The position numbers and the translations under genes are program-made. Shown here one piece after another: positions 1 to 19,027 of a DNA stretch of 19,476 bases. Under the pieces are notes generated by a model that saw only the letters and a program-made list of their open reading frames with translations, had not been told where the DNA came from and made no database searches. The DNA comes from a virus. Where the stretch lies: the UHGV virus genome UHGV-0127163. The stretch is one strand, 5' to 3'. How positions within the stretch are numbered: the first letter of the stretch is position 1; each line of letters begins with the position of its first letter.

Positions 1-49
1 TTATGTTAACGAAAGGATTGTACAGTAAAGCGCATTTGTTAACGAATCA

Positions 50-769
50 TTAAATGCCGAGTGGGAAAATATCATGGCCTTGTTCTTGCCAACTGGTGAG
101 TTGCTGCTGTTGGGCGGAGGTTCGATTTTCACCGCACCACACCAGCAATGTACGGCCTTCGAATAGTTCAGGGCGTAGTTGATTGAGCGAGTGGGCGAGG
201 ACATCAATGCGCCATCCTTGTTGACTGGCAATCCAGCCCTCCAGCCACAGACGGGTGGTATCCTGAATATTCCAGCCAACCACCAGCGCATCTTTACCCT
301 GTTTTTTACGTGCCGAAGCCAGACAAATGGCGATGTAGTTGATCAGTACGCCGTCGAGGATCGCCAGCAGCGCCTGGAGAGTCGGTTGTTGGCATTGAAG
401 TCGTCGGCGCAGAGGAATAAACAGATGTGTGGTGAGTGTCTGGGCGGGGTAATCCTGACCGCGCTCTTTGATCCACGTTCGCAGGCTATGCAGATTGCCG
501 CTTTGCAGGTAGGTCAGTAATGTTTCTTGCTGATCGCGCCAGCCGTTCTGCACATCAACATTTTCATTACTGAGCAGCATTTTAACTTTGCTGACCTGCA
601 CGCCGTTGTCGATCCAGCGTTTGATCTCGCGGATACGGTCAATATCGGCATCGTTGAACAGTCGATGACCGCCGTCTGTCCGTTGCGGTTTCAGCAACCC
701 GTAACGCCTCTGCCACGCGCGTAACGTGACAGGGGTTAAGGGTAAACTAATTGATTTTGCAAGTTTTTA
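50..769 (-). CDS. mlrA: MerR-family transcriptional regulator (MlrA/YehV-like); host gene whose native 5' end is replaced by prophage-junction sequence
   Basis: Translation carries a MerR-type HTH C-terminal half (PVTLRAWQRRYGLLKPQRTDGGHRLFNDADIDRIREIKRWIDNGV) followed by a long effector domain; stop TAA at 50-52. Upstream of ~725 the in-frame sequence (KLAKSISLPLT) no longer looks like a MerR helix-1 and the frame closes at TAA 767-769, 2 nt from the integrase stop. ORF-track start at 697 is a TTG. Assignment to mlrA/yehV is from memory of the protein and of yehV as a known lambdoid integration site. Confidence 0.55.
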
Positions 770-771
770 TT
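700..771. other. Approximate attL / host-prophage junction
   Basis: Lies between the integrase 3' end (stop at 772-774) and the point (~722-727) where the MerR-gene frame stops resembling a MerR N-terminus. Core sequence cannot be defined without attR or an uninterrupted host allele. Confidence 0.3.
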
Positions 772-2058
772 TTACCCAGCTTTCTTATGGGGCATACATG
801 GGACACTTTCAGATAGTCTTTTGTTAAGGAGTTCTATCTGTTCGTGATTGTTGTCTTTCATCCATGCTCCGTAAACATTGAATACCATTTGTGCGTTTGT
901 GTGGCCTATCTGGCTTGCGATAAAACTAGGATTAGCTCCTGCGGCAAGTGACCAGCATGCATAAGTATGCCTGGATTGGTACGATTTTCTGTGTCTCAGA
1001 CCTGCGCGTTTTAAGATACTTGTCCATGACTCCCTGATGGAGTCAACCTTGTAGTGAGGTCCGGACAACTGCTGCTGTTTTGTTACCTGAGGACTAAAAA
1101 CAAAAGTGCATTTATGCACAGCAGTTCTCCCATATTCCCTCTGCTTCACCTCTACAGAATGTTGCTTTCCAAGCATGGTCATTTCCGCCTGGCTTTTAAG
1201 AGCATCAATAGCTGGTTGAACCAGATGAATTGTCCTTCCGGTGCCTGCATCGGTTTTTGGTGGAGTGAATTCGCCAAGTTTTGTATAATTTCTACGGATG
1301 GTTATAGTCCTTGCTTTAAGGTCTATATCTTCCCATGCCAGCGATACCAACTCCCCGTGACGAATACCCGTGTATACAGCGAGAATCCACAGGTTTTTTG
1401 TTTGTTGATGACGGCAAGCCTCAATAAAACGAATAAATTCGTCACGGGTGAGAGGATCTGGTTTTACCTTGGACTTTTTTAAGGGAGCCAGACCGTTAAA
1501 TGGGTTTCCTGAGGTATAACCATTATCTGTTGCAAATTGAAACATTCCAGCTATGGTTGTCATATAGTAGTTTACCGTGACCACTGAGCGCCCTTTTATG
1601 GAAGAAGTCTTTCCATTAGAAAGCTTTTGGTAACCGGTCAACAAATCTCTCCTTACGAAAAGTAAATCCTCTTTTGTTATGGATGAAACCAGTTTTTTTT
1701 CACCTAACATTGGTAACATGTTTTTAATTACTGACTGGTAACGGTTAAGTGCATTCGCACAAATCTCAATTTTCTTAAGGTCCAACCATTTTTCCGAAAG
1801 TGCCTTAACGGTTATCTCTCTTTTTCCCAGACCAAAGTGTTTCAGGTTAGGGGAATTAGGGAACTGCGCGGCATAGTCGAAACTCCCCATTCTGATTGCA
1901 AAACAAACGGAAGTGCGAAGTTCACCAGCGATCTTCCGGTTTTTGGCTGTGTCAGGAACACCGAGGTTTTCTCTGACACGTTTGCCATTATAGTGAAACC
2001 ATATACGGAGTGATCCTCCATGGTTTTCAACGCCTGTCGGGTATGATGCGTTACTCAT
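772..2058 (-). CDS. int: Tyrosine-type site-specific integrase (phage integrase family)
   Basis: 428 aa; C-terminal catalytic signature visible in translation (…GIRHGEL…, …SRHTYACW…, …VYGAWM…; R-H-R-Y pattern). ATG at 2058 preceded by GGAGG SD (rc of 2064-2068). Located next to the att junction and downstream of xis. Confidence 0.9.
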   Translation of the reverse strand: MSNASYPTGVENHGGSLRIWFHYNGKRVRENLGVPDTAKNRKIAGELRTSVCFAIRMGSFDYAAQFPNSPNLKHFGLGKREITVKALSEKWLDLKKIEICANALNRYQSVIKNMLPMLGEKKLVSSITKEDLLFVRRDLLTGYQKLSNGKTSSIKGRSVVTVNYYMTTIAGMFQFATDNGYTSGNPFNGLAPLKKSKVKPDPLTRDEFIRFIEACRHQQTKNLWILAVYTGIRHGELVSLAWEDIDLKARTITIRRNYTKLGEFTPPKTDAGTGRTIHLVQPAIDALKSQAEMTMLGKQHSVEVKQREYGRTAVHKCTFVFSPQVTKQQQLSGPHYKVDSIRESWTSILKRAGLRHRKSYQSRHTYACWSLAAGANPSFIASQIGHTNAQMVFNVYGAWMKDNNHEQIELLNKRLSESVPCMPHKKAG

Positions 2059-2091
2059 TAAACCTCCCAGACGTCCAGGAGCATTAACAGG

Positions 2092-2346
2092 TTAACCGGA
2101 ACTTGCATTTTTGGCACCTGGTTGTTTCTGGTTTTCGATCCATCGCATAATTTCTTCGATGTTGTACAGGCATTCACTGTAGTGCCCCGGATCACCTTCT
2201 ACAGCGTAATGGCGGTATTCTTTTCCCTGCATCCATGACTTTCTTCTTGCCCGCTCAATGGTGCCAGGCTTTAGCCCTGTTGATGCAATGAGGACTCTCT
2301 CCGTACACCATTTGCTGGGGGTTATCTGATAGATGATTGTCTGCAT
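2092..2346 (-). CDS. xis: Putative excisionase (Xis-like small DNA-binding protein)
   Basis: 84 aa ORF immediately upstream of int on the same strand, GAGG SD before the ATG; position and size typical of excisionase. No strong motif recognised, so the call is mainly positional. Confidence 0.5.
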   Translation of the reverse strand: MQTIIYQITPSKWCTERVLIASTGLKPGTIERARRKSWMQGKEYRHYAVEGDPGHYSECLYNIEEIMRWIENQKQPGAKNASSG

Positions 2347-2409
2347 GCCAACCTCATAAAACTTTCATCCACGGCAGTGGCACCACACTTCAAACATTCG
2401 CTTCACAAC

Positions 2410-2499
2410 TTAACGACAGTAGAAGCCGTCAACATCTCGCGTCAGGTCATAGCGATTGCCGTAACGCTGGTGGACCCATCGTTCAAATGCTTTATTCAT
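2410..2499 (-). CDS. Possible small ORF (29 aa, MNKAFERWVHQRYGNRYDLTRDVDGFYCR)
   Basis: ATG at 2499-2497 with AGGAAG SD 6 nt upstream, located in the 156 bp gap between xis and the next upstream gene. Below ORF-track size cutoff; hand translated. Confidence 0.25.
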   Translation of the reverse strand: MNKAFERWVHQRYGNRYDLTRDVDGFYCR

Positions 2500-2502
2500 T
2501 CT

Positions 2503-2745
2503 TTACTTCCTTTTTATGGCTCGTAATTTTTTCAGGTGCTTTTCCTGCTCAGTGTCCGCGAGAATTTTGCGGTACTCCTGGTGGTCAATATGTTCGAACA
2601 GGCAGTTTAACTCACCAATGCGTACCCGCCCGGATCGTCCGTCCATCCGTCGAAAGAACACTGAGTGCTCAGTGATGCGAGTAATCACCACGGGGTATCC
2701 AGCTCTGTCCGTGTATATCTGACCGCGTTGAATCAAAGCGAACAT
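2503..2745 (-). CDS. Hypothetical phage protein (80 aa from internal ATG; ORF-track start at 2781 is TTG)
   Basis: ORF in early-left operon orientation; ATG at 2745 with GGGGA upstream. No recognisable domain. Confidence 0.45.
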   Translation of the reverse strand: MFALIQRGQIYTDRAGYPVVITRITEHSVFFRRMDGRSGRVRIGELNCLFEHIDHQEYRKILADTEQEKHLKKLRAIKRK

Positions 2746-2829
2746 GTGGTTATCCCCATCGACAAATCGAGAACACAACAAACGCTGCTGCGAATACCAC
2801 CCCCAGAGTTACGATTGCATCAGGCCAGC

Positions 2830-3774
2830 TCATTGATTCACCTCCTGCCTGTCGTCCGGCATTCGCTCACTACAGCTTATCCAACCATCCGGAGTTACCG
2901 GAACTTGTGGAATGGCTGTCTGCTCTCGAACGTCATTAGGCGCTATAGGTTCTGCTGCCAACTGACTGGCATATTTGTTAATGGTAACGATAAGCTCTTG
3001 CTCAGCCTCATCCAGACAATCACCGATACCTCGCCTGTCACCGTCAAAATCATCGAAATCGGCACGAATCCTGGCAACCTTCAGGATTGCGGACAACACC
3101 TCACTAGGAATTGCCGGATAGTTGGTTGACGTTTCCGCGATTTCCCGAAAATTATTGGTTGACGAATTCTTGTTTTCCCGAAAGTTTCCGGACTGAAGCA
3201 TGGCGGCGCGGCAGGCGTTCCATATTTCGGCAGCAATATCGCGCTCGCTATCGGTTAATTTGTACGTTGAAACATAGCCAGAGAGCATTTCTACGTTTTC
3301 CGGAGTTGCTTCTTCAGGCACTACCGGTGCTGGCTCACGTATTACAGGCTCGCCCATGCGTGATTCTCCCTGCGCCTCTTTCACCATGTGGTCATTGATT
3401 TGCTCCAGTCGCCGAACGTGCTCATCAGCTTCAAGCGCTCGCCGTTTCCAGATGGACAGGTCTTCACGAGCGCCCTGATATGCGTCACCGTATTCGCCGT
3501 TAAATACTGGCGCTGGCGGGGCGATGCGTCCAAGCAACTTATTTACCTCTTTCGCCATCGCGTCATATTTATCTAAATAGCGATTAGCTTCTAAGCAGAC
3601 TCGGTGCATCTGATCTGAGTTAACTCGTTTAACTGGATCTGCTTCCAATGATGCCAGTGCAATCCGTGCCAGTTCTTCCGCTTCTTCTGCTGGCAGTACA
3701 ACGTTGCTACCCGGTCCGTATGTTTCGCGCCACTGCTTGATTGTCAGCAGTCGCCCTTTGGTAATAGTGATCAT
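2830..3774 (-). CDS. Hypothetical phage protein (314 aa)
   Basis: Long ORF, start ATG overlaps stop of upstream gene (ATGA at 3771-3774). Acidic, coiled-coil-like composition; contains an internal ~33 bp tandem duplication (3120-3186). No domain assigned. Confidence 0.6.
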   Translation of the reverse strand: MITITKGRLLTIKQWRETYGPGSNVVLPAEEAEELARIALASLEADPVKRVNSDQMHRVCLEANRYLDKYDAMAKEVNKLLGRIAPPAPVFNGEYGDAYQGAREDLSIWKRRALEADEHVRRLEQINDHMVKEAQGESRMGEPVIREPAPVVPEEATPENVEMLSGYVSTYKLTDSERDIAAEIWNACRAAMLQSGNFRENKNSSTNNFREIAETSTNYPAIPSEVLSAILKVARIRADFDDFDGDRRGIGDCLDEAEQELIVTINKYASQLAAEPIAPNDVREQTAIPQVPVTPDGWISCSERMPDDRQEVNQ

Positions 3775-4286
3775 GCCGCGTTTCCTTCTTTCTTATTAAC
3801 AATCACACCGTCATATATTTCATTAAGGTGCCCTCTCAACTCCATGCGCCTTAATGCAGATAACATGTAATCGCATTCAACCTGCTTATTCCCGGTAAAT
3901 GGCTTATCGTCAGGATTACCCCAACAGCAATTACCCCTGGGCCATCCATGTACTTTCCGTACTCTTCCGTTAACAACGTGAAGTAATCCCCAGCCGGGAG
4001 GTAAATCCTCAACTGAAATAATTTCCGGCTCACTAATAAAGAATCGCCAGTCGCCCATGCCAAGTGAGGGATTTTTACGGAAACGCTTTTTTCTATCTGC
4101 CAACAAGTCAGCACGAGAACACTTCGCCTCTATCAGGCATGATGCTGAATTTCTGAATCCCATAGCATCTGGCTGTTCTCCGGTACTGGTTACAGCAACA
4201 AAGCGGTCATGAAAGCAAACCTTGAACCCGTTGCGCTTAAGGAACTTGTACGCAATCTGACAGAGTTCGTGGTGTGTTAACGCCAT
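3771..4286 (-). CDS. Hypothetical protein with PD-(D/E)xK nuclease-like motif
   Basis: 171 aa; GGAGAG SD before ATG 4286; translation contains …EQPDAMGF…(19 aa)…CLIEAKCSRADL…, resembling a D…(D/E)xK nuclease core. Family assignment not verified. Confidence 0.5.
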   Translation of the reverse strand: MALTHHELCQIAYKFLKRNGFKVCFHDRFVAVTSTGEQPDAMGFRNSASCLIEAKCSRADLLADRKKRFRKNPSLGMGDWRFFISEPEIISVEDLPPGWGLLHVVNGRVRKVHGWPRGNCCWGNPDDKPFTGNKQVECDYMLSALRRMELRGHLNEIYDGVIVNKKEGNAA

Positions 4287-4287
4287 A

Positions 4288-4860
4288 TCACTCTCCTTTG
4301 ATGCGAATGTCAGCGACGCGTAATGCGTGTTCTAGGTCAATCAGGTAAAGCCAACTGCCATTTTCTTTAGGTATCATGACTTGTCGCTCATCTGCATTTA
4401 TCGGGTGTCCATATCGAAGGTCGTAGCGAGTCGGTAATTGAACTTCCCGCGCTTCCAGTTCAGCAATACGCTTGCACCCATCAGAGATAACTCCCTCGTA
4501 ATACTCGCGCTGCTCGTTGAGTTTTGATTTTGCTGCTTCAAGCTCAACGCGCAGCTTCCCAACCGTAAGCGCAATATCCTCGTTCTCCTGGTCACGGCGT
4601 TTGATGTATTGCTGGTTTCTTTCCCGTTCATCCAGCAGCGCCTGCACTACTTCAGGGTTGAAAGCTGCGATATAACGAGCGTTGTTCTCTGCGTTGTTCT
4701 GTCCATCAAAGCCGGTCCATTTGATAACGTCTTCACATCGTTTATCACCAGGTGTATGCACCGCATATGTACCAGTACCAGACGAAATAAATGCGACCCA
4801 TTCACCCTGTGTTGCCAGTTGCGCCGCTTTACGCAGTGCCTGATAGTCAATCTTGCTCAC
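4288..4860 (-). CDS. Ea22-like early protein (ead/Ea22 family), start likely GTG at 4860
   Basis: N-terminal …SKIDYQALRKAAQLATQGEWVA… resembles the conserved N-terminus of lambda-type Ea22-like proteins (recalled, not searched). GTG at 4860-4858 overlaps stop of upstream gene (GTGA) and follows AGGAGG SD; ORF-track ATG at 4896 lacks an SD. Confidence 0.55.
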   Translation of the reverse strand: MSKIDYQALRKAAQLATQGEWVAFISSGTGTYAVHTPGDKRCEDVIKWTGFDGQNNAENNARYIAAFNPEVVQALLDERERNQQYIKRRDQENEDIALTVGKLRVELEAAKSKLNEQREYYEGVISDGCKRIAELEAREVQLPTRYDLRYGHPINADERQVMIPKENGSWLYLIDLEHALRVADIRIKGE

Positions 4861-5096
4861 TGGTTGCCTCCTTTGCGGATCTGCGCTGCGATGCACGAAA
4901 AAAAAGACTCCCGCGTATGACTGTTAAGAGCTGGCGCGAACGCTGCGTTAAGAACGGCAGCATCACAGCCGTCATCGATATAGAGCGCAATTTTTTTCTC
5001 CAGGCGCGCTTTGGCTTCCTGCAACTGCATACCCCGGCACGCACGCGGGATATAATCAGCAATTTGAGCGATAGCTTTTTCGTTCTGTTTAAACAT
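4857..5096 (-). CDS. Hypothetical small phage protein (79 aa)
   Basis: ATG 5096 with GAGGTG SD; stop overlaps next gene start; same operon orientation. Confidence 0.5.
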   Translation of the reverse strand: MFKQNEKAIAQIADYIPRACRGMQLQEAKARLEKKIALYIDDGCDAAVLNAAFAPALNSHTRESFFSCIAAQIRKGGNQ

Positions 5097-5292
5097 GCTT
5101 CACCTCGATAGGCTTGATGGTGTCTAACAGCAGTCGGCGGCGCGTATTTTCTGCAAAGTGGCGGCGTCCAGTTTCTTTGTGGTAAAACTCGTTTTTGCCG
5201 ACGACCCACATCCGTTCTGTTTGGTGCAATTTTTTTACCTGCGGTCCATCTTTGGTGATCACGGTACCGGTATGGGTTTTTACGATTGTCAT
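5089..5292 (-). CDS. Hypothetical small phage protein (67 aa)
   Basis: ATG 5292 with AGAGGT SD, ATGA overlap with stop of PAPS-reductase-like gene. Confidence 0.5.
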   Translation of the reverse strand: MTIVKTHTGTVITKDGPQVKKLHQTERMWVVGKNEFYHKETGRRHFAENTRRRLLLDTIKPIEVKHV

Positions 5293-6167
5293 GCCACTAC
5301 CTCTTCGAATTTCAACTCCAATTGGTCACCCCAGATTTCACATGATTCGGAACACGAACCAGTATCAAACCGCTTGGCCAGCACCATCGCCTGATACAAA
5401 CTTCTGTAGTCGCTGTCGGCATACATTCTGGCAATCCTGTCAAGCGTCAGGTGACCACGGTACATAACGTCTTTACCTGTTCTGCGATGACCATCCCGGA
5501 CGTGTTTGCCTGTAACCAGTTCATTAAAAACCCGCATCAGACCAGGTTCGTCTTTACATGCGATCCCCAGCTTTTGCGTTGACTTTTTGATGCAGAAAAC
5601 ACAGTTCCCGAGGTGCTCCGGGATTTGCAAATCAAAAGGTTGTTTACGCCACCACCGGATAACATCCGACTTATCAAAATCTGACAGCTCGGCAAGATAC
5701 CGGACGCCCGGTTTCGGTTTCAGCCTACGGTGTTCGTCCGCACGAATACCCAGCCATGTGATGTAATTCCCTCGCCCAAAATGGTCATCGCAATATTTCG
5801 TGAAAGGGGTGAGTTTTAGCCTGTCAGTACAGAATGCGCCGCCGATGTATGGCGTACCGTACTTTTTAACCATGTCCATAAACGGTTTAAGCACCGGCAT
5901 TCGCGTCTGAATATCCTTTGGTTCCCATTCCGTATAACCATTTGGCTGCCCAAGCTCTGGATTTATATCGACCTGCAACACAGTTAGCGGTATGCCCCAG
6001 AACTTCACAACCTCCCGAATAAAGCGGTATGTCAGCGGATGTTCGCAACCGGTATCCATAAAGATGTAGCAGACGTTATTGCCAGCCTTTCTTTGTTCTT
6101 CCATCAGGTGAACAAGATATGCAGATGTTCTCCCGCCAGAAAAACTAACTACATGAGTTATGCACAT
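5289..6167 (-). CDS. Phosphoadenosine-phosphosulfate (PAPS) reductase-family protein (PP-loop ATP pyrophosphatase fold)
   Basis: 292 aa; N-terminal PP-loop-like motif VVSFSGGRTSAYL (SGGxxS-type), typical of the PAPS reductase/ATP-sulfurylase-like superfamily found in lambdoid early regions. Confidence 0.7.
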   Translation of the reverse strand: MCITHVVSFSGGRTSAYLVHLMEEQRKAGNNVCYIFMDTGCEHPLTYRFIREVVKFWGIPLTVLQVDINPELGQPNGYTEWEPKDIQTRMPVLKPFMDMVKKYGTPYIGGAFCTDRLKLTPFTKYCDDHFGRGNYITWLGIRADEHRRLKPKPGVRYLAELSDFDKSDVIRWWRKQPFDLQIPEHLGNCVFCIKKSTQKLGIACKDEPGLMRVFNELVTGKHVRDGHRRTGKDVMYRGHLTLDRIARMYADSDYRSLYQAMVLAKRFDTGSCSESCEIWGDQLELKFEEVVA

Positions 6168-6694
6168 TTGCGTAATTCCGATAACTCGTTGAAGCGTTCC
6201 ATAAACATCCCGTAGGCATGGCCCGGTGCCAGTGGAATCACTTTGAACATCTCTGTTGCCGGGATACCTTCCAATACAGGCCAGAAAGAGCCATCATCAA
6301 GTCCGAGATCGCGGCGTTCGGTTGCCAGCATGATGAGATCGGCATATTTCACAGGCGTGCTCATAACCGGGGGTAACCCGTATTTCTCACGGATTACGGC
6401 GTCTATTTTTTCTTCCATCCGTTTATAGTCAGGAAGAAGGCGTTTCAGTGGAGCGGGAATATCCTGGCAATACGCTTCTGTTGCATCATGCATTAACGCT
6501 TCAAAAGCAAATTCCTGCGGCACCAGCTGGCTGCAAAGCACCGCATGTTGGGCGACACTGTAGAAGTGAGAAAGATGACCGGCAAAGCGGCAGATATTTG
6601 AAAGGGAAACCGCGATATCGTTAATCACGATGTCGTCTTTATTTATCTTGTCATAATAAAAATGCTTCCCGGAAAAAGTTTTAATAAATGACAT
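6158..6694 (-). CDS. HD-domain phosphohydrolase (YfbR-like nucleotidase family)
   Basis: Translation contains H…H and HD motifs (…FAGHLSHFYSVAQHAV…, …ALMHDATEAYCQDIP…). Preferred start ATG 6694 with GGAGAA SD; the longer ORF-track start at 6763 lies inside a strong hairpin. Confidence 0.7.
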   Translation of the reverse strand: MSFIKTFSGKHFYYDKINKDDIVINDIAVSLSNICRFAGHLSHFYSVAQHAVLCSQLVPQEFAFEALMHDATEAYCQDIPAPLKRLLPDYKRMEEKIDAVIREKYGLPPVMSTPVKYADLIMLATERRDLGLDDGSFWPVLEGIPATEMFKVIPLAPGHAYGMFMERFNELSELRKCA

Positions 6695-6736
6695 TTTGTT
6701 CTCCACGTTATATGCGCTGCACCGCTCTGAATTTTG

Positions 6737-6786
6737 ATTGCAGCAATCCAGCCCATTTGACATGGGATGATTGCTGCAATTTTTTT
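6737..6786 (+). terminator. Perfect 12-bp inverted repeat with nested 5-bp hairpin, followed on the + strand by T6 (intrinsic-terminator-like on + strand)
   Basis: ATTGCAGCAATC (6737-6748) / GATTGCTGCAAT (6769-6780); inner CCCAT-ttgac-ATGGG (6752-6766); TTTTTT 6781-6786. Sits between the RdgC-like and HD genes. Confidence 0.35.
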
Positions 6787-7702
6787 AAGTTGTTGGATTT
6801 TGGCTTTTATCTTCTTTGTAAGAAAGAAGGTCACACATCAAATTAACTACCTTGCTGAATTGGAAAAGGTCAGCGCCAGTCTGATGACGCCACTGGAATG
6901 CTTTATCATCTTCATCATTAAATGTCTGAGATTGAGTATTGATGCGCGAAAAATGGAAATTTTCGGTAAGAATGAAGGTCACACCGCAACCGGATAACTC
7001 CATTTTATCAGCAGTGAAACTACTACTAAGGCTATCGGCCAGTTCGCTTTGAATTGACTCATGCTCAGCTGAGTAGCGAATAATTTCCTTTTGATCTGCG
7101 TAGCGTGATAGCTGAATATAATTTCCGACAGTGAATCCTTCAAATGCATTGGCTGCACCATTGATGTAGTTATTCAGGCGTGTAGTCAGTCCATTCTTGA
7201 TATCACTGATGTTGATTGTTTCTGTTTTCACTGAACCGACAACCTTAATCAGCATTGCGCATACCATACCGGCTATTATTTTATTGGTTGTGTTGATTAC
7301 CAATAATTTCTCATCAGTGCTGTACAATGCAAGAATCAGAGTAGACTTAACAAATGCCTGTTTGCATAGATCTACTCGTACGTTATCAATAATGGCCAGT
7401 CGTTCGGCACGCTTTAATTTATTCCCGGACATATTTTCGATTGTTTGGATTCGAGAATTAGCTTCTTTCATGACGACATGTCGGGGAATTATTTTCTGAT
7501 CATGACGGATTACCATTGCGTACCCACCAGATATCGGAGTTACCAGTTCACCAGTGACAGGATTCTCTACAAAAGAGGACCGTGAAAATTCTGTTTCCCC
7601 GATTTCAGAATAAGGGAGTTCGAGAAGATGACCTTCAATAGCCTGTATACTAGGTAATGTTGCTCGGTACACAATTGCGTTACGAAATTTTGGTAATTTC
7701 AT
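6785..7702 (-). CDS. rdgC: RdgC-like recombination-associated protein
   Basis: From ATG 7702 (GAGGA SD) the product starts MKLPKFRNAIVYR…, matching the RdgC N-terminal pattern (M-x-x-F-K-N-x-x-VYR) and its ~305 aa length. The ORF-track N-terminal extension to 7903 overlaps the structured leader and is unlikely to be translated. Confidence 0.7.
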   Translation of the reverse strand: MKLPKFRNAIVYRATLPSIQAIEGHLLELPYSEIGETEFSRSSFVENPVTGELVTPISGGYAMVIRHDQKIIPRHVVMKEANSRIQTIENMSGNKLKRAERLAIIDNVRVDLCKQAFVKSTLILALYSTDEKLLVINTTNKIIAGMVCAMLIKVVGSVKTETINISDIKNGLTTRLNNYINGAANAFEGFTVGNYIQLSRYADQKEIIRYSAEHESIQSELADSLSSSFTADKMELSGCGVTFILTENFHFSRINTQSQTFNDEDDKAFQWRHQTGADLFQFSKVVNLMCDLLSYKEDKSQNPTT

Positions 7703-7740
7703 TCTATTTTCCTCTGCACAATGTATTAGTTTCTCCACAA

Positions 7741-7835
7741 AACAGAGAAGAACACCTGCGGTGGCAGCCGCCCGGATGGATTGGGTTATGAGCCCGTCGT
7801 CCGGTGATGCTCTTCTCTGTTTTGTAAAAAGAGCG
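7741..7835 (-). promoter_or_regulatory. Structured RNA element in early-left leader: boxA-like CGCTCTTTTTA followed by a 14-bp stem enclosing a ~53-nt multi-hairpin core
   Basis: On the - strand: CGCTCTTTTTA (7835-7825), then AACAGAGAAGAGCA (7821-7808) pairing with UGUUCUUCUCUGUU (7754-7741); 13 Watson-Crick pairs plus one G-U on the - strand (the same position is an A-C mismatch on the + strand). Immediately 5' of the RdgC SD. Confidence 0.4.
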
Positions 7836-8288
7836 GTACCAGCCGGAAGCAAGTGTACAAACTGGTACCGCCAAAGCAGTGGCTGTTGTGGTGGGGTTGT
7901 CACTCAGGCGTATGGTCAACCTGACAATCCGGTGTCCTCAACGGGGAAAGAGTAACCCCGCCATACTTACCGCCGCGCCATTTCGCGGATTACCACAACG
8001 CTGAGAGCACTTAGCCAGTTACGGCACCACACTTTGTCGCGGCTCCATAAATGCCCTCATCGTTGCACCCTGGTCTCTTCCCAAGCGTCAAACCGAATCG
8101 CCACGCTGGTTAGGCGTCTTATCAGCATCATCATTGACTTGCACATTCCGGCTACCTGGTTTGTTTGCCCGAGCAAGGAGTGGATTGTCCCCTTTAACGT
8201 CCCCAGACCGCTAACGACGCATGTGCCATACGCCGTGTTACAACCAACCTTTCGTTAACAACAGTCTGTTGTTTGTTCAGATAATGAT

Positions 8289-8303
8289 GCTACTAAAAGT
8301 AGC
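8289..8303. promoter_or_regulatory. Candidate OL operator: palindrome GCTACT-aaa-AGTAGC related to the OR repeats
   Basis: 15-bp site with 6-bp arms; shares CTA…AAGTAG with the 13-bp repeats at 10664-10676 and 10687-10699; a further AAAAGTAG half-site at 8318-8325. Embedded in AT-rich DNA with plausible leftward -35/-10 hexamers. Confidence 0.35.
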
Positions 8304-8538
8304 AAAAATCAACAACAAAAAGTAGAAGTGTGTATTTAATTTTTAGTTTTCTATATAACGTTATGAATTAAAAGGTTTTTCACAGATGGGGGGATGTGGT
8401 GTAGTTACGTATAGAAAATATCGAGTGTCTTTTGTTTTGGTTTAATTATTAGGTTAATTAGATAGTAATAATTTTGGGGAAAATAGTGGGAACTATGGAT
8501 ACAACGGGTCAGGAACAGTGTTATTAAGCAGGCTACGA

Positions 8539-8600: not shown

Positions 8601-9686
8601 TTACAGACACTTGACTACTGTTGAAACATCAGATTCTAGTGCTTCAATTTGTGCTCTATTAGCTTGGGTCGCCATACCATAGATAGTGTAACTCTTATGC
8701 TGCAGCCTACTTAAAGGGCATCCCTCATGGTTTATTATTGCTGCAAGAGTATTACCATCTTTGACATTTTGAACTCTCTCGAAAGTAGCCACATTTGTGA
8801 ACAGATGAGGATGTGTATTTAACAGGTCATCCGTGATTCTTTTGATCTCTTCTGCATGTGATTTGAATGCTTTTGCTGCATCACTTTCATTAGTTCTTGA
8901 GCGGTTTTGTACGAAAAGGTGTAGTTCAGGTAGTTCGATAAGGTTTTGCTTTGCTTCTTTGTTGAAATCTAAGAACATTTCATCTTGTTCTGACTTGTCA
9001 ATAGACACTCCATAAATAAGTTTAACAAGGTTTTTTATTCCGCGAATTGATGCAGCATCGGCAGTGCAAGGGATAATTATTCTATTTGCCGCGACTACTC
9101 CCAATTCTGTGTAGCTGGCAAAACTTGGATTACAATCAATAAAAAATGTTTTTGCTCTGTCAGAAATGTTTTTATCGGCTTCAAAAGATGCTATTAGATC
9201 TACCAGCAAAGATCGGCTTTTCTTCCATGCTTCTTTTACTGGGGATGAGCCAATGTGAGATATTAAGCGTGAACAGATATCAAGATCGACATCACCAGGA
9301 AGAATATATAAGTTCTCTGGCATTTTTGCATTAACATCATGGGCTCGTACAAAGTAAGAAGATTCATTTCCTAAACGAGACAAAGGAGATTTGCTAAAAC
9401 GCTCCTTGATATAACCTGCGATTGTAACATTTCTGTCTCGCAATTTATTTAGATTTTCTTCCCCGGTACCATTGCCACCAAGAATAATTTCTGAAACGTT
9501 TGATTGAGGGCATGAGTCAATAACCACAACATCTTGATCCGGATGAGATATAGCAAACTCAACGGCAAGATTATATGTAAGAAAAGTTTTTCCTACACCA
9601 CCTTTGTTGTTCCATACTAAATATTTTGTATTGGTGGAAATCATATCTGCTACCCCATCTGTCGCTTCAGTACGTTCATTAATCAT
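8601..9686 (-). CDS. ParA/MinD-superfamily P-loop ATPase with ~100 aa C-terminal extension; orphan gene in the cI-to-OL interval
   Basis: Deviant Walker A NNKGGVGKT, Walker A'-like VVVIDSCPQ, Walker B-like FFIDCNPSF in translation. AGGA SD 7 nt before ATG 9686. Visibly AT-richer than flanking phage DNA; preceded by a 234 bp AT-rich spacer and followed by its own terminator. Confidence 0.75.
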   Translation of the reverse strand: MINERTEATDGVADMISTNTKYLVWNNKGGVGKTFLTYNLAVEFAISHPDQDVVVIDSCPQSNVSEIILGGNGTGEENLNKLRDRNVTIAGYIKERFSKSPLSRLGNESSYFVRAHDVNAKMPENLYILPGDVDLDICSRLISHIGSSPVKEAWKKSRSLLVDLIASFEADKNISDRAKTFFIDCNPSFASYTELGVVAANRIIIPCTADAASIRGIKNLVKLIYGVSIDKSEQDEMFLDFNKEAKQNLIELPELHLFVQNRSRTNESDAAKAFKSHAEEIKRITDDLLNTHPHLFTNVATFERVQNVKDGNTLAAIINHEGCPLSRLQHKSYTIYGMATQANRAQIEALESDVSTVVKCL

Positions 9687-9920: not shown

Positions 9921-10661
9921 TTAAAGTCGATTATATTTAATCGACTCATGAATCAGTGCCTTACCCATAACATAAAGCTGATCTTGCGACTTCTCATCAA
10001 TGTACCATTTCTCATAGGCGGGGTTATCCGAAAGAACAGCTAGTTTGTTGCCTTGCATTTGTAGACGTTTAACATGGAAAGTCTTACCGTAAACGAAAGA
10101 GTAAACTCCATCAGTCTGGAAGTGGCGAACGGAAATGTCGACAAACAATCGATCCCCGGAAACAAGAGTTGGGGACATACTATCTCCATTTACCGTCATA
10201 ACTTTTATATCATTCTGAGAACGGTTTCCGAAAAGAGAACGGGCATGTTCAGTTGTGAACTCAATGGCGTAGAGCACATCAACATAGTCTGAAAGCATAT
10301 AGGTCCCAGGTCCTGCGCTAACGCTAAGATCCAAAACTTCTATCCTGTATACATCGGGCTTTGTTGGATTGGGGATGCTTGCCATTTCCTTACATTCCTC
10401 TCTATCTCCAACACCATATTCTAGATATGAAGCTGATACTCCAAGAGCCAACGCAAGTTTACTCATGACAGAGACACGTGGCTTCGCTGCGCCGATTGTG
10501 TATCGACGAGCCATTTCATATGTAACGCCCACAAGACTTTTGAGTTGAGTGACAGAGATTCCTTTGATTGTCATCAATTCGTTTAGTCTCTTGGCGAAAT
10601 CTGGATACTTCTGTTCTTCTACCATAGGTAGAAGATTACTCACATCGCACGCGCTAGTCAT
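9921..10661 (-). CDS. cI: CI-like prophage repressor (XRE-type HTH + LexA/S24 peptidase autocleavage domain)
   Basis: HTH segment …ISVTQLKSLVGVTYEMARRY…; C-terminal S24 signature …VNGDSMSPTL… and downstream Lys (…FHVKRLQ…). Divergent from the cro-like gene. ATG 10661 has no SD and abuts operator repeats, consistent with a leaderless pRM-type transcript; ORF-track start at 10682 is TTG. Confidence 0.8.
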   Translation of the reverse strand: MTSACDVSNLLPMVEEQKYPDFAKRLNELMTIKGISVTQLKSLVGVTYEMARRYTIGAAKPRVSVMSKLALALGVSASYLEYGVGDREECKEMASIPNPTKPDVYRIEVLDLSVSAGPGTYMLSDYVDVLYAIEFTTEHARSLFGNRSQNDIKVMTVNGDSMSPTLVSGDRLFVDISVRHFQTDGVYSFVYGKTFHVKRLQMQGNKLAVLSDNPAYEKWYIDEKSQDQLYVMGKALIHESIKYNRL

Positions 10662-10663
10662 TT

Positions 10664-10723
10664 CTATTTTAAGTAGTTGCAATTTGCTATTTTAAGTAGC
10701 ATCATCCCTCTGAATTTCAGAGG
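10664..10723. promoter_or_regulatory. OR-like operator/promoter region: two 13-bp direct repeats plus a 17-bp palindrome overlapping the cro SD
   Basis: CTATTTTAAGTAG at 10664-10676 and 10687-10699 (23 bp centre to centre); CCTCTGAA-t-TTCAGAGG at 10707-10723; cro SD AGGAGAAAGG at 10721-10730. Confidence 0.45.
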
Positions 10724-10731
10724 AGAAAGGT

Positions 10732-10971
10732 ATGTCATCTCAAAACTACACAGAGAAAGCAGTAAAGGCTGCGGGAAAATCTTTATCTGAAGTAGCCCGT
10801 CGCTTTGGTTTTAAGTCCACTCAATCCGTCGCCAATTGGGTAATTAACAATCAAGTCCCGTCAGAACGGGTTTTACAACTTTGTGAGTTGGGAAACTGGT
10901 CCGTGACCCCTCATGAACTGCGTCCTGATATTTACCCCAATCCAAATGATGGATTACCTGAGTGCTATTAA
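10732..10971 (+). CDS. cro: Cro-like HTH regulator (DicC/YdaS family)
   Basis: 79 aa, strong SD, divergent from cI; …GKSLSEVARRFGFKSTQSVANWV…VP..R…LRPDIY pattern resembles DicC/YdaS-type Cro proteins. Confidence 0.7.
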   Translation: MSSQNYTEKAVKAAGKSLSEVARRFGFKSTQSVANWVINNQVPSERVLQLCELGNWSVTPHELRPDIYPNPNDGLPECY

Positions 10972-11608
10972 AAAGTTAGCGGTTCAACTGCGTAAACGTA
11001 ACCACAGAAACGAGGAATTAACCGTGGGTAAAGAACCTGAATGGAAAGTTGATAAGCAACCAGCATGGCTGGTGGCAGCAATACGAAGAACGATTGCTGA
11101 TTTACCTCATGGCTATGAGGAAGCAGCGGAAATTCTTGGTTTGTATAAATCTGATGATATCACCCCAGCGAAAGATCAATTGCATAACAGACTGCGTAGC
11201 GGTGGGGATCAAATTTTTCCACTTGAGTGGGCCATGGTTTTACAGGATGCCAGTGGTACCAGGCATGTAACGGATGCGATAGCGCGTCGTAGTAATGGGG
11301 GGTTTGTGCCGCTGGTGGACATTGATGACATTGACAATGGTGACATTAATCAGCGGCTGATGGAGTCAATAGAATGGATTGGCAAGCATTCCCAGTACTT
11401 ACGCAAGGCAACTGCTGATGGAGTTATTGACCAGGCTGAGCGTGAGCAAATCGAAGAGAACAGCTACCAAGTAATGGCGAAGTGGCAGGAGCATTTAACA
11501 CTGTTATTTCGTGTTTTTTGTGCGCCGGAAAAGAGTAACGCCCGCGAGTGTGCAGCTCCGGGCGTCGTGGCGTCGATTGCTTCTGGTTGTGGAGAAACTA
11601 ACGCATGA
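10946..11608 (+). CDS. Hypothetical early-right protein in the cII position (possibly YdaT-like); start uncertain
   Basis: ORF overlapping the 3' end of cro in another frame; candidate starts ATG 10946 (no SD) or GTG 11024 (GAGGA SD). Family not securely recognised. Confidence 0.45.
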   Translation: MMDYLSAIKKLAVQLRKRNHRNEELTVGKEPEWKVDKQPAWLVAAIRRTIADLPHGYEEAAEILGLYKSDDITPAKDQLHNRLRSGGDQIFPLEWAMVLQDASGTRHVTDAIARRSNGGFVPLVDIDDIDNGDINQRLMESIEWIGKHSQYLRKATADGVIDQAEREQIEENSYQVMAKWQEHLTLLFRVFCAPEKSNARECAAPGVVASIASGCGETNA

Positions 11609-11933
11609 ATAGTTTAACGGCAAATAACCGTTTGTCGCAACAGCTGGTGGTCAGCGTCGCTGAACACCTGTTGTTACGGCATGAATGCAGATTACCAAAT
11701 CACCTGGCTGTAAGTAACCACAGAGAACTTTACCTGACTGTGGGGGGCGAGTTGTGCAGGAACTTAACCGCTGGTTTCGTGACGGAAGAGGGCTTTATGT
11801 CCATGTTATTCGTTGGGAGCCAGAAACACAGCGCGTTATCTATCTTCGCAAAGACTACCCGCATGAGTGCTTTAGTCCTTTGTGGAAATTCAGGCGTGAT
11901 TTTGTTGAGTGTGAAGGACCACCAGCATATTGA
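11605..11933 (+). pseudogene. Small gene split between frame 1 (11605-~11748) and frame 3 (~11748-11933) at a G6 run: frameshift mutation, homopolymer sequencing error, or -1 frameshift site
   Basis: ATG 11605 is coupled to the upstream stop (ATGA). After the G6 run (11742-11747) only frame 3 reads as protein-like (RVVQELNRWFRDGRGLYVHVIRWEPETQRVIYLRKDYPHECFSPLWKFRRDFVECEGPPAY, stop 11931-11933); frame 1 turns Ser/Ala/Gly-rich and low-complexity. Frame 3 is closed upstream by TAA 11715-11717. Confidence 0.35.
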
Positions 11934-12021
11934 TTCTGCAATTCCGGGACGTTACACTGCTCAGGCACCTTATAAAGCGGGTGCCGGGGGTCGCAGCCCG
12001 GAATTGTCAACGGCGATATAT

Positions 12022-12041
12022 GACGCGCCAGCGTCTTTTTT
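12022..12041 (+). terminator. Candidate weak intrinsic terminator (tR1-like) upstream of rha
   Basis: GACGC-gcca-GCGTC followed by TTTTTT (12036-12041); lies inside the computed 382-aa ORF, ~90 nt after the frame-3 stop. Confidence 0.4.
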
Positions 12042-12207
12042 ATCGTCCGCGCTCACGCACGCCAGAATTATGGTGGGCTGGGCAGGGGAGCCGAAAGGCT
12101 CGCCGGTCTCCGTTGACGCCGGTACTGCGAACCCTGTTCAGTCTGCCACCAGTGAGTTTCGCAGCTCCGGTGGTGGAAGTTTTCCACAGTCAACGGAGGC
12201 TGCCATC

Positions 12208-12753
12208 ATGGCTACGATCCCAACCCTCACTCAACCTGAAATTGCCATCGTTGATGGTCAGGCTGTTACTTCATCCCTGGCTGTTGCCAACTTCTTCTCC
12301 AAACGTCATGACGATGTACTGAAAAAGATCCGCACGCTTGAATGCTCTGCATCATTCACTTCCCGCAATTTTTCGGTGAGTGATTACACCGATTGCACAG
12401 GCCGCAAACTACCTTGCTATCAAATAACCCGCGACGGCTTTGCGTTTCTTGCTATGGGTTTCACGGGTAAACGTGCTGCCCAGTTCAAAGAGGCATACAT
12501 CAATGCCTTTAACCAGATGGAGAAACAGCTTTCAAATCCCTCTGTACTGAGCGACGTTGCACATAACGCCAGCGTTCTCTATTCCTACATTTCATCAATT
12601 CATCAGGTCTGGCTGCAGCAGCTTTATCCCATGTTGGCAAAAGCCGAATCCCCGCTGGCTGTAAGTCTGTATGACCGCATCAACGACGCGGCGCTACTGG
12701 CCAGTCTCATAAATTTGTCGCTGAACCCTTCAGAGGTAAGGGGGCGCAAATGA
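12208..12753 (+). CDS. rha: Rha-family phage regulatory protein
   Basis: From ATG 12208 (GGAGG SD at 12195-12199) the product begins MATIPTLTQPEIAIVDGQAVTSSLAVANFFSKRHDDVLKKIRTL…, matching the N-terminal Rha domain (…KRHDxVLrxI…). The 382-aa ORF-track version is judged an artefactual upstream extension. Confidence 0.65.
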   Translation: MATIPTLTQPEIAIVDGQAVTSSLAVANFFSKRHDDVLKKIRTLECSASFTSRNFSVSDYTDCTGRKLPCYQITRDGFAFLAMGFTGKRAAQFKEAYINAFNQMEKQLSNPSVLSDVAHNASVLYSYISSIHQVWLQQLYPMLAKAESPLAVSLYDRINDAALLASLINLSLNPSEVRGRK

Positions 12754-18617: not shown

Positions 18618-18634
18618 TTTTGTGGAGAAAGTTG

Positions 18635-19027
18635 ATGCGTGATATTCAGATGGTTCTCGAACGCTGGGGGGCATGGGCGGCAAGTGGTAACGCCGGGGTG
18701 GACTATTCTCCGATAGCTGCTGGATTTAAAGGCCTTTTACCATCCACCGCTAAACCTCGCCCGGCCTGCAGCGATGATGACGGCCTTATCATCGAAAACT
18801 GCCTTACGCGCCTGAAGAAGAAAAAACCGGACGAGTATTCGCTGCTGGTAGCTCATTATCTGCTGCGCATATCAAAAAGGCAGATTGCCAGAACAAGAAA
18901 GAAGAGCGAAAAGGCAATACGAATTGAGATGCAGATTGCTGAAGGATTTATTGACGGATGTCTGTCGATGCTGGGTGTAAGGCTGGAGATGGACGACTGG
19001 CTGCCCAAAAAAGTAAAAAATGATTAG
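18635..19027 (+). CDS. Q: Late-gene antiterminator Q-like protein
   Basis: 130 aa from ATG 18635 (GGAGA SD); N-terminus MRDIQMVLERWGAWAA… resembles Q proteins of the phage-82/933W group as recalled; immediately followed by a promoter-proximal terminator (tR' arrangement). Confidence 0.6.
   Translation: MRDIQMVLERWGAWAASGNAGVDYSPIAAGFKGLLPSTAKPRPACSDDDGLIIENCLTRLKKKKPDEYSLLVAHYLLRISKRQIARTRKKSEKAIRIEMQIAEGFIDGCLSMLGVRLEMDDWLPKKVKND

Follow-up and report, generated by a model that had tools for sequence, protein, structure and literature searches.

What occupies the place of the N gene in a lambdoid phage that has no N? The question is raised by a stretch of viral DNA of 19,476 nucleotides (UHGV virus genome UHGV-0127163), analysed at its full length and referred to here as the window. 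It is a lambdoid prophage of an Escherichia coli host and belongs to the N-less group of the SfV, cdtI, mEp460 and Stx2c-phage type. Between the operator and promoter OL/pL and the first early-left gene, rdgC, lies a leader of about 575 nt at the position of N. We found no early antitermination mechanism for this group, either in the present analysis or in a literature search. The reading proposed here, to which we give a probability of about 0.5, is that the leader is the precursor of a small RNA rather than a nut or put site, and that its last structured element, C2, is a stalk for RNase III processing. The coordinates of the features are collected in Table 1.

Table 1. Features of the leader and its surroundings (positions in the window; paired segments are given in the order of the minus-strand RNA).
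Feature	Position	Strand	Description
CI-type repressor gene	9921-10682	-	S24 peptidase and HTH
ParA/AAA_31-like gene	8601-9686	-	361 aa; own terminator 8565-8546
rdgC	6785-7702 (ATG 7702)	-	First protein-coding gene of the early-left operon; Pfam RdgC E 5e-31, residues 6-280 of 305 aa
cro	10732-10971	+	
Q antiterminator gene	18620-19027	+	
OL operator GCTACTTTTAGTAGC	8289-8303		Exact palindrome
Putative pL	8284-8312	-	-35 TTGATT 8312-8307, 17-nt spacer, -10 CATCAT 8289-8284; read from sequence
Module A	8067-8247	-	Conserved structured segment; 78-83% identical to phage P1 71012-71194 and phiV10
First hairpin of module A, CGGCGUAU-GGCAC-AUGCGUCG	8215-8235	-	Like the lower helix of HK022 putL stem I
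LS1	7995-8066 (8066-8049 with 8012-7995)	-	Second long stem; 36-nt core; in the MFE fold, conserved in phiV10
Module B	7891-7988	-	Conserved structured segment before DicF-type terminators; 89% identical to K-12 Qin L007:6252-6374
DicF-related sRNA-like 3' module	7826-7890	-	CACAACA 7890-7884, UUUGGCGGUACCAGUUU core, terminator hairpin 7872-7832, U tract 7830-7826
C2	7729-7830	-	Long stem P1, three-way junction, P2 arm with tRNA-fMet anticodon-arm mimic, variable hairpin P3
C2 helix P1	7825-7806 with 7756-7737		20 bp
C2 P1 extension	7830-7826 with 7736-7732		Five wobble-rich pairs, U tract to GGAGA
C2 helix P2a	7804-7800 with 7776-7772		
C2 GGG-CUCAUAA-CCC hairpin	7783-7795 (7795-7793 with 7785-7783)	-	Loop CUCAUAA; copies the initiator-tRNA anticodon arm
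C2 helix P3	7771-7768 with 7761-7758		Hairpin of variable length
UGUGCAGAGG	7711-7720	-	Degenerate UGCAG-loop hairpin, fused to the Shine-Dalgarno of rdgC (GAGG 7714-7711)

The surroundings of the leader are those of a lambdoid early region. Downstream of rdgC, the early-left operon continues with genes for an HD-domain protein, a PAPS-reductase-like protein, Ea22 and others, and the plus strand carries, besides cro and Q, genes for a CII-like protein, an Ash/Rha antirepressor, Dam and RusA. A preliminary description of this DNA had placed OL/pL at about 8290, and the placement is right, since the OL palindrome recurs with two mismatches, as GCTATTTTAAGTAGC, at 10686-10700 between cI and cro; operator-type matches number four, against 0.3 expected. 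The putative pL overlaps the operator, the aligned place in cdtI reading TTGACA..CATAAT, and its sequence would put the start of transcription near 8277. Between cI and OL/pL, where lambda has rexAB, stands the ParA/AAA_31-like gene, a candidate moron or exclusion gene; no gene is annotated at this place in cdtI, mEp460 or Stx2a_1447. On the plus strand, Rfam recognises isrK (58.7 bits) and the C4 antisense RNA (78.8 bits) in tandem at 11965-12153, inside a 382-aa open reading frame (ORF, 11605-12753) and within the Pfam Phage_ASH region of the Ash/Rha antirepressor. The same pair is present in cdtI and F1055, and either the RNA genes overlap coding sequence here or the 5' part of the ORF is non-coding.

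The leader itself is a non-coding, GC-rich untranslated region of the pL operon that folds on the minus strand. Its GC content is 50-57%, against about 38% in the flanks, and its RNA strand is rich in G (GC skew of the plus strand, -0.17 to -0.25); Rho acts poorly on structured, G-rich RNA. That the interval is non-coding had been proposed before and is borne out by the mismatches to related phages, which are even across codon phases in phage P1 (12/10/13), phiV10 (14/15/11), mEp460 (18/17/15) and F1055 (21/24/18). The accompanying statement that the longest ORFs have 8-29 codons holds for ATG starts only, since a 71-aa ORF with a TTG start exists at 7919-7704 and the rdgC frame is open up to a GTG at 7903. 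Coding-type conservation is absent from both, and we treat them as spurious because the underlying sequence is conserved in phages with another downstream gene. A coding interval is thus ruled out by the even distribution of substitutions and by a downstream gene that varies while C2 stays constant. Over the leader, "hypothetical proteins" are annotated on the opposite strand in cdtI (orf40, 4304-4759), mEp460 (mEp460_036/037, 3963-4516) and F1055 (3796-4368); they are probably artefacts of the GC-rich RNA, since the RNA covaries and codon periodicity is absent. A search of Rfam with the whole window at gathering thresholds, together with three local runs at E<=10, gave only chance-level matches in the leader (miRNA-precursor, snoRNA and hairpin-ribozyme models), and ARAGORN called no tRNA in the window or in cdtI, mEp460 or F1055. 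Two other classes of RNA can be set aside: a retron or other reverse-transcriptase-associated RNA, because the window encodes no reverse transcriptase, and the sRNAs Pas, AgvB and AsxR, because the published ones belong to the late region, a site other than the leader.

It is important to note that the leader is made up of structured RNA modules, strung together and each conserved on its own, which are common to other phages. By BLAST, a block of about 530 nt (8258-7726) is 98-99% identical in cdtI, Ayreon, 2H10, PhiR40_1 and Stx2c phages and 88% identical in mEp460, and of 5426 complete E. coli genomes, 4857 hold the leader at least in part. The block lies 3' of the repressor gene and 5' of the first early-left gene in all relatives examined. 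Weaker BLAST matches were used to draw the borders of the modules: SfV, SfII and SfIV share the last ~150 nt (the terminator and C2), and ST64B matches only the last ~105 nt, that is, C2. This mosaic make-up escaped the preliminary description, as did the homology to the dicF locus and to phage P1 and the mimic of the initiator-tRNA anticodon arm.

The homologue of module A lies between trnI and ban in phage P1 (78% identity in the BLAST comparison) and immediately 5' of a tRNA-Arg gene in phiV10 (82%), and a GGGG..CCCC hairpin covaries among the window, P1 and phiV10. There are hints in the sequence that module A descends from, or mimics, a tRNA gene. The GGCGATTCGGTTTGACGC of the window, at ~8105-8080, is aligned in Salmonella phage F1055 (~3900-3930) with CTGGTTCGATTCCAG, which is a perfect T-arm sequence of a tRNA; ARAGORN calls no tRNA at this place in F1055. 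The arms of the first hairpin of module A are those of the putL stem I lower helix save two changes that preserve pairing, and the hairpin stands in the same distance class from pL as putL, the rest of put being absent. In LS1, the 3' arm GUGCUCUCAGCGUUGUGG is similar to that of C2; the covariance model of C2 finds no match at LS1 in the window and weak ones at the counterparts of LS1 in Qin (E 0.07) and phiV10 (E 1.3). The Qin copy of module B lies directly upstream of dicF, and further copies are found in the "dicF-like region" annotated in phage P1 and, between dicA and kil, in phage pPE4; a compensatory change is seen in P1 in the module B helix GGUUGUCA/UGACAACC.

Module B is followed by a strong intrinsic terminator. 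Its hairpin comprises 13 bp (-21 kcal/mol) and is followed by UUUUU, and the 5' arm, with the bases that precede it, reads UUUGGCGGUACCAGUUU, where the aligned place in DicF reads UUUGGCGGUAUCAGUUU. A hairpin of -8 kcal/mol or lower abutting a run of 4-7 T stands at this place in 56 of 67 distinct upstream variants, and the UUGGCGG of the 5' arm is kept by most relatives, with covariation between the arms. The Rfam model of DicF (RF00039) gives no match in the window at E<=10 (K-12 dicF, as a control, scores 76.7 bits). The unit nevertheless lies 3' of module B in an early operon and ends in an intrinsic terminator of the UUGGCGG type, as DicF does, and by position and core sequence it appears to be related to DicF, while standing outside the Rfam family. 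In the stretch that leads up to the hairpin stands the CACAACA of Table 1; the consensus target of the GcvB R1 seed is CACAACA (PMC4104026), and the resemblance is weak, since this 7-mer is expected in ~3.5% of leaders of such size. The 3' arm of C2 is GU-rich, as is GcvB R1.

The same terminator accounts for a string, CGCTCTTTTTA (7835-7825), that had been regarded as boxA-like. It is the terminator tail and no boxA, because it is made up of the 3' arm and the U tract, because such strings occur at chance level (10 one-mismatch matches to lambda boxA, CGCTCTTA, in the window against 11.8 expected), and because the relatives diverge there: the window has CGCUCUU, and the relatives have CCGCCCU, CCGUCCU or GCCGCAC. 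Neither an rrn-type boxA nor a conserved nut-type boxA (CGCUCUUA or UGCUCUUUAACAA) was found in the leader.

Downstream of the terminator hairpin, C2 is an element whose structure is supported by comparison. A stem of 14 bp had been noticed here, enclosing a core able to form more hairpins; the stem exists and is in fact longer, with 20 bp and a wobble-rich extension of five pairs, and the core does hold two further helices. A pattern scan of viral contigs yielded at least 120 loci, comprising 78 distinct variants, and 23 distinct sequences were taken into the alignment (A3) on which the helices are based. In this alignment 95.4% of the cells are paired, against 37-53% with slid partners, and the compensatory changes for which a search had been suggested are present: nine pairs are altered on both sides. 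The covariation score is 0.212, compared with 0.109 in shuffles, and was reached by 0 of 500 shuffles. The functional strand of C2 is the minus strand, as had been argued from a G-U pair, because of its G-U pairs and because its covariance model (R1) gives the minus strand 117 bits and the plus strand 44; the fold z-score of the leader, -4.4 on the minus and -2.4 on the plus strand, points the same way. Both the G-U pairs and the asymmetry of the bit scores also rule out a palindrome acting at the DNA level.

C2 is widespread. It is present in 2808 of the 5426 complete E. coli genomes, carries no annotation in any of the five E. coli records listed, and matches no Rfam family, so that the covariance search proposed as a check came back empty. 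Among the matches listed in a GTDB scan with GGGNTCATANCCCAATC, at least six are true C2 copies (E. coli, Citrobacter, Enterobacter, Kosakonia and two other loci), standing amid chance matches in coding sequence. Because the gene that follows varies (a 120-aa family, RdgC or an HD-domain protein), C2 is considered a self-contained module. Phage P1 (NC_005856) has two diverged copies of the family on the plus strand, at 1711-1821 and 1988-2081 (33 and 37.6 bits). They lie on the strand of the ban operon and overlap plp and upl on the opposite strand, small ORFs which may be misannotations over structured RNA. A full-text literature search for the sequence of the motif found no paper, and we found no description in the literature of the module map, of C2 as a family that covaries and carries a tRNA-fMet mimic, or of its location at the position of N in an N-less phage group.

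Between C2 and the first gene there is a further conserved feature. The sequence GCAG occurs 5-45 nt 3' of C2 in 40 of 43 distinct relatives, and in the examples listed it forms the loop of a GC-rich hairpin of 3-7 bp, such as CGACC-UUGCAG-GGUCG or GGCGG-UGGCAG-CCGCC, whose stems covary. The window has nearly lost this hairpin and retains only UGUGCAGAGG. The hairpin may bind a protein or stabilise the 5' end of the processed mRNA.

These features can be joined in the following mechanism. Transcription from pL, under the control of the CI operator, would run through module A, LS1 and module B and, about 445 nt downstream of its start, meet the DicF-type terminator, where most rounds would end at 7826-7830. 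The terminated leader RNA would have a 3' end shaped like that of an Hfq-binding sRNA, with a U-rich stretch, a hairpin and a U tail. Transcripts that read through would contain C2, and RNase III would be expected to cut its stem of 20-25 bp. The cut would detach the leader RNA from the rdgC mRNA, give this mRNA a new 5' end directly upstream of the UGCAG motif and the Shine-Dalgarno sequence, and release a core of about 60 nt displaying the mimic of the initiator-tRNA anticodon arm. A processing stalk for RNase III calls for a nearly perfect duplex of some 20 bp or more on both sides of the RNA that is to be set free; the stem offers 20 bp plus an extension of 5 bp, and 95% of the cells in the alignment of relatives are paired.

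In this sense, the best precedent is the K-12 prophage Qin, where the DicF terminator is followed, after 8 nt, by a 21-bp stem round a branched (multibranch) core, ending at the dicB Shine-Dalgarno sequence. According to PMC5069750, which cites Faubladier 1990, the 3' end of DicF arises in two ways: termination yields a species of 53 nt, and RNase III, acting on the full-length mRNA, yields one of 72 nt. A cut at the latter position, some 19 nt beyond the DicF terminator, would lie inside the 21-bp stem of Qin. The parallel rests on layout and not on demonstrated homology, because the C2 model misses the Qin stem. Of the three functions that the preliminary description had considered for its stem, a processing or translational control element seems, by this layout, the best fit; the other two, a put-like antiterminator and an unusual nut site, fare less well. 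Nonetheless, if the terminator is efficient, some element would still have to let transcription through to rdgC.

With a strong terminator ahead of every early-left gene, there must be some provision for read-through, and part of the leader could be a processive antitermination element in place of N, either with RNA polymerase as its direct target, like put, or through a protein, like nut. The candidates would be module A, which lies 5' of the terminator, or C2 with the UGCAG hairpin for sites further on. We consider this explanation unlikely, though it has several points in its favour. The absence of a recognisable N gene, already remarked upon, extends from the window to the same position in cdtI, mEp460, F1055 and Stx2a_1447, and the whole phage group is without N there; no first downstream gene in the relatives is Arg-rich or N-like, the orf39-type first gene being acidic and without a Pfam match. 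For a nut site, however, a boxB with a GNRA-like pentaloop is lacking in the leader, whose sole conserved small hairpin has a UGCAG loop, a cognate Arg-rich N protein is lacking in the window, and the site as first conceived falls with its boxA-like string, a chance-level terminator tail that relatives do not conserve. A protein-binding site is still conceivable because the UGCAG-loop hairpin recurs in 40 of the 43 relatives, and the near-invariant motif of 21 nt in C2 suggests a macromolecular partner.

Put RNAs fold into two stems with a conserved GAACGGC, and their read-through of terminators depends on the beta-prime zinc-binding domain of the polymerase. For a put site, the position is suitable: the phage is N-less and module A begins some 30 nt past the inferred start of pL, with a first hairpin that shares ACGGCG..CAUGCGUCG..AGCG with stem I of putL, at the place of putL. 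Against this, a covariance model (R2) built from 15 put sequences, with putL mapped from PMC9378689 and the HK022 genome, found no match in 7703-8300 at E<=10 with filters off, and the put stem II signature GGAUGA..CAAUG is absent from the window. The stem that had been likened to put cannot overcome the leader terminator, because C2 comes after that terminator, the sole strong one of the leader, and no other strong minus-strand terminator was seen in 1-7800. Moreover, modules A and B occur in P1 and phiV10 in other contexts.

The small-RNA precursor reading leaves one feature of C2 without explanation. RNase III needs only a duplex, so that processing alone accounts neither for the 21 invariant nucleotides GACGGGCUCAUAACCCAAUCC nor for the conserved UGCAG loop. 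Within this motif, the 14-mer CGGGCUCAUAACCC (CGGGCTCATAACCC, 7796-7783) is identical to the anticodon arm of the K-12 metY initiator tRNA (tRNA-fMet), including the CUCAUAA loop and three consecutive G-C pairs. These three pairs are the mark of initiator tRNA and an initiator-specific determinant of P-site binding. The 21 nt are invariant in the 23 distinct sequences, save one loop base in two of them, while the surrounding helices covary; GGG-NUCAUAN-CCC plus AAUC is retained in the diverged copies of P1, and the exact mimic motif is also present in two unrelated stems (L009 and L040). It is therefore tempting to regard the core as a functional mimic that engages a recogniser of tRNA-fMet, the long stem serving only to present or release it. 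Such a reading, which is compatible with RNase III processing, is doubtful in our judgement. Its partners are candidates: the 30S P site (initiation on the adjacent gene), MetRS, or a nuclease directed at initiator tRNA, such as an enteric VapC, for which the core would be a decoy. The VapC toxins of Shigella and Salmonella cut tRNA-fMet at the anticodon arm. The fact that sibling modules adjoin phage tRNA genes also favours a mimic. On the other side, C-A and A-A replace the C-G and U-A of the tRNA beyond the three G-C pairs, the downstream genes have no conserved start-codon context, and no acceptor, D or T arm completes a cloverleaf (neither ARAGORN nor the Rfam tRNA model detects a tRNA on C2), so the resemblance could also be an inheritance from a decayed tRNA gene. 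An attP site or tRNA-integration relic is rejected, because the sharing is limited to the anticodon arm, the flanking helices covary, the element lies in the pL leader, and it recurs in many different phages. The boldest form of this idea is a long shot: a phage-borne anticodon-arm mimic, released from the leader, would act on translation initiation or on a host nuclease directed at initiator tRNA and, with the upstream modules, would replace N/nut in very common prophages of E. coli, Shigella and Salmonella, including those of Stx2c and some Stx2a phages.

Finally, the leader might be a decaying remnant without present function, an N/nut deletion scar or a set of dead tRNA or sRNA genes, as its mosaic make-up, the degenerate UGCAG hairpin of the window and a DicF-like unit without the 5' third of DicF could suggest, but this is very improbable in view of the compensatory changes that maintain the structure, the 99-100% identical copies in the active phages cdtI, Ayreon, 2H10 and Stx2c phages, the presence of C2 in 52% of complete E. 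coli genomes, and the fact that none of the relatives examined has N at this place.

The leader described here occupies the place of N in a widespread group of lambdoid prophages, which includes SfV-type, cdtI and mEp460 phages as well as Stx2c and some Stx2a phages of O157:H7, and C2 is found in about half of the complete E. coli genomes. Processing stems in leaders were known before, as were the dicF locus and the leader of the P1 ban operon; the module map ties the last two to a shared set of RNA cassettes and raises a specific question, namely what recognises the anticodon arm of initiator tRNA on a phage leader. Since variation of the early region correlates with Shiga-toxin output (PMC4645166), regulators at this place may carry practical weight.

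The leader can be compared with several known systems. The N leader of lambda, made up of nutL, then an RNase III-sensitive hairpin and then the ribosome-binding site of N, has in common with it a long structured element between pL and the first ribosome-binding site, whereas the window has no N, boxB or conserved boxA. HK022 putL likewise belongs to an N-less lambdoid phage, starts right after pL and shares the lower helix of stem I; unlike it, the present leader has neither the stem II signature nor a match to the covariance model. The thrS operator of E. coli is an mRNA operator that mimics a tRNA anticodon arm. There, as in C2, the anticodon stem-loop of a particular tRNA is reproduced by a hairpin in the leader; C2 differs in that it mimics initiator tRNA, stands on a processing-type stalk and has no cognate protein encoded nearby. 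Closer in sequence is the leader of the P1 ban operon (Pban, dicF-like region, tRNA genes, ban), which has a copy of module B, another of module A immediately 5' of ban, and a pair of C2-family copies that keep GGG-NUCAUAN-CCC. Its modules are, in contrast, arranged in another order and interspersed with three true tRNA genes and tciABC, and P1 is not lambdoid. The untranslated dicF region of Qin (in the dicBF operon of K-12) differs in three respects: the unit of the window is without the first ~18 nt of DicF and fails the Rfam model; the Qin stem is missed by the C2 model and has no tRNA-like loop; and the leader of the window starts at pL, without small ORFs upstream. What the two share is an early operon of the early-left type under repressor control, module B directly upstream at 89% identity, a terminator hairpin with a UUUGGCGGUAYCAGUUU core, and a long stem round a branched core between the terminator and the next Shine-Dalgarno sequence.
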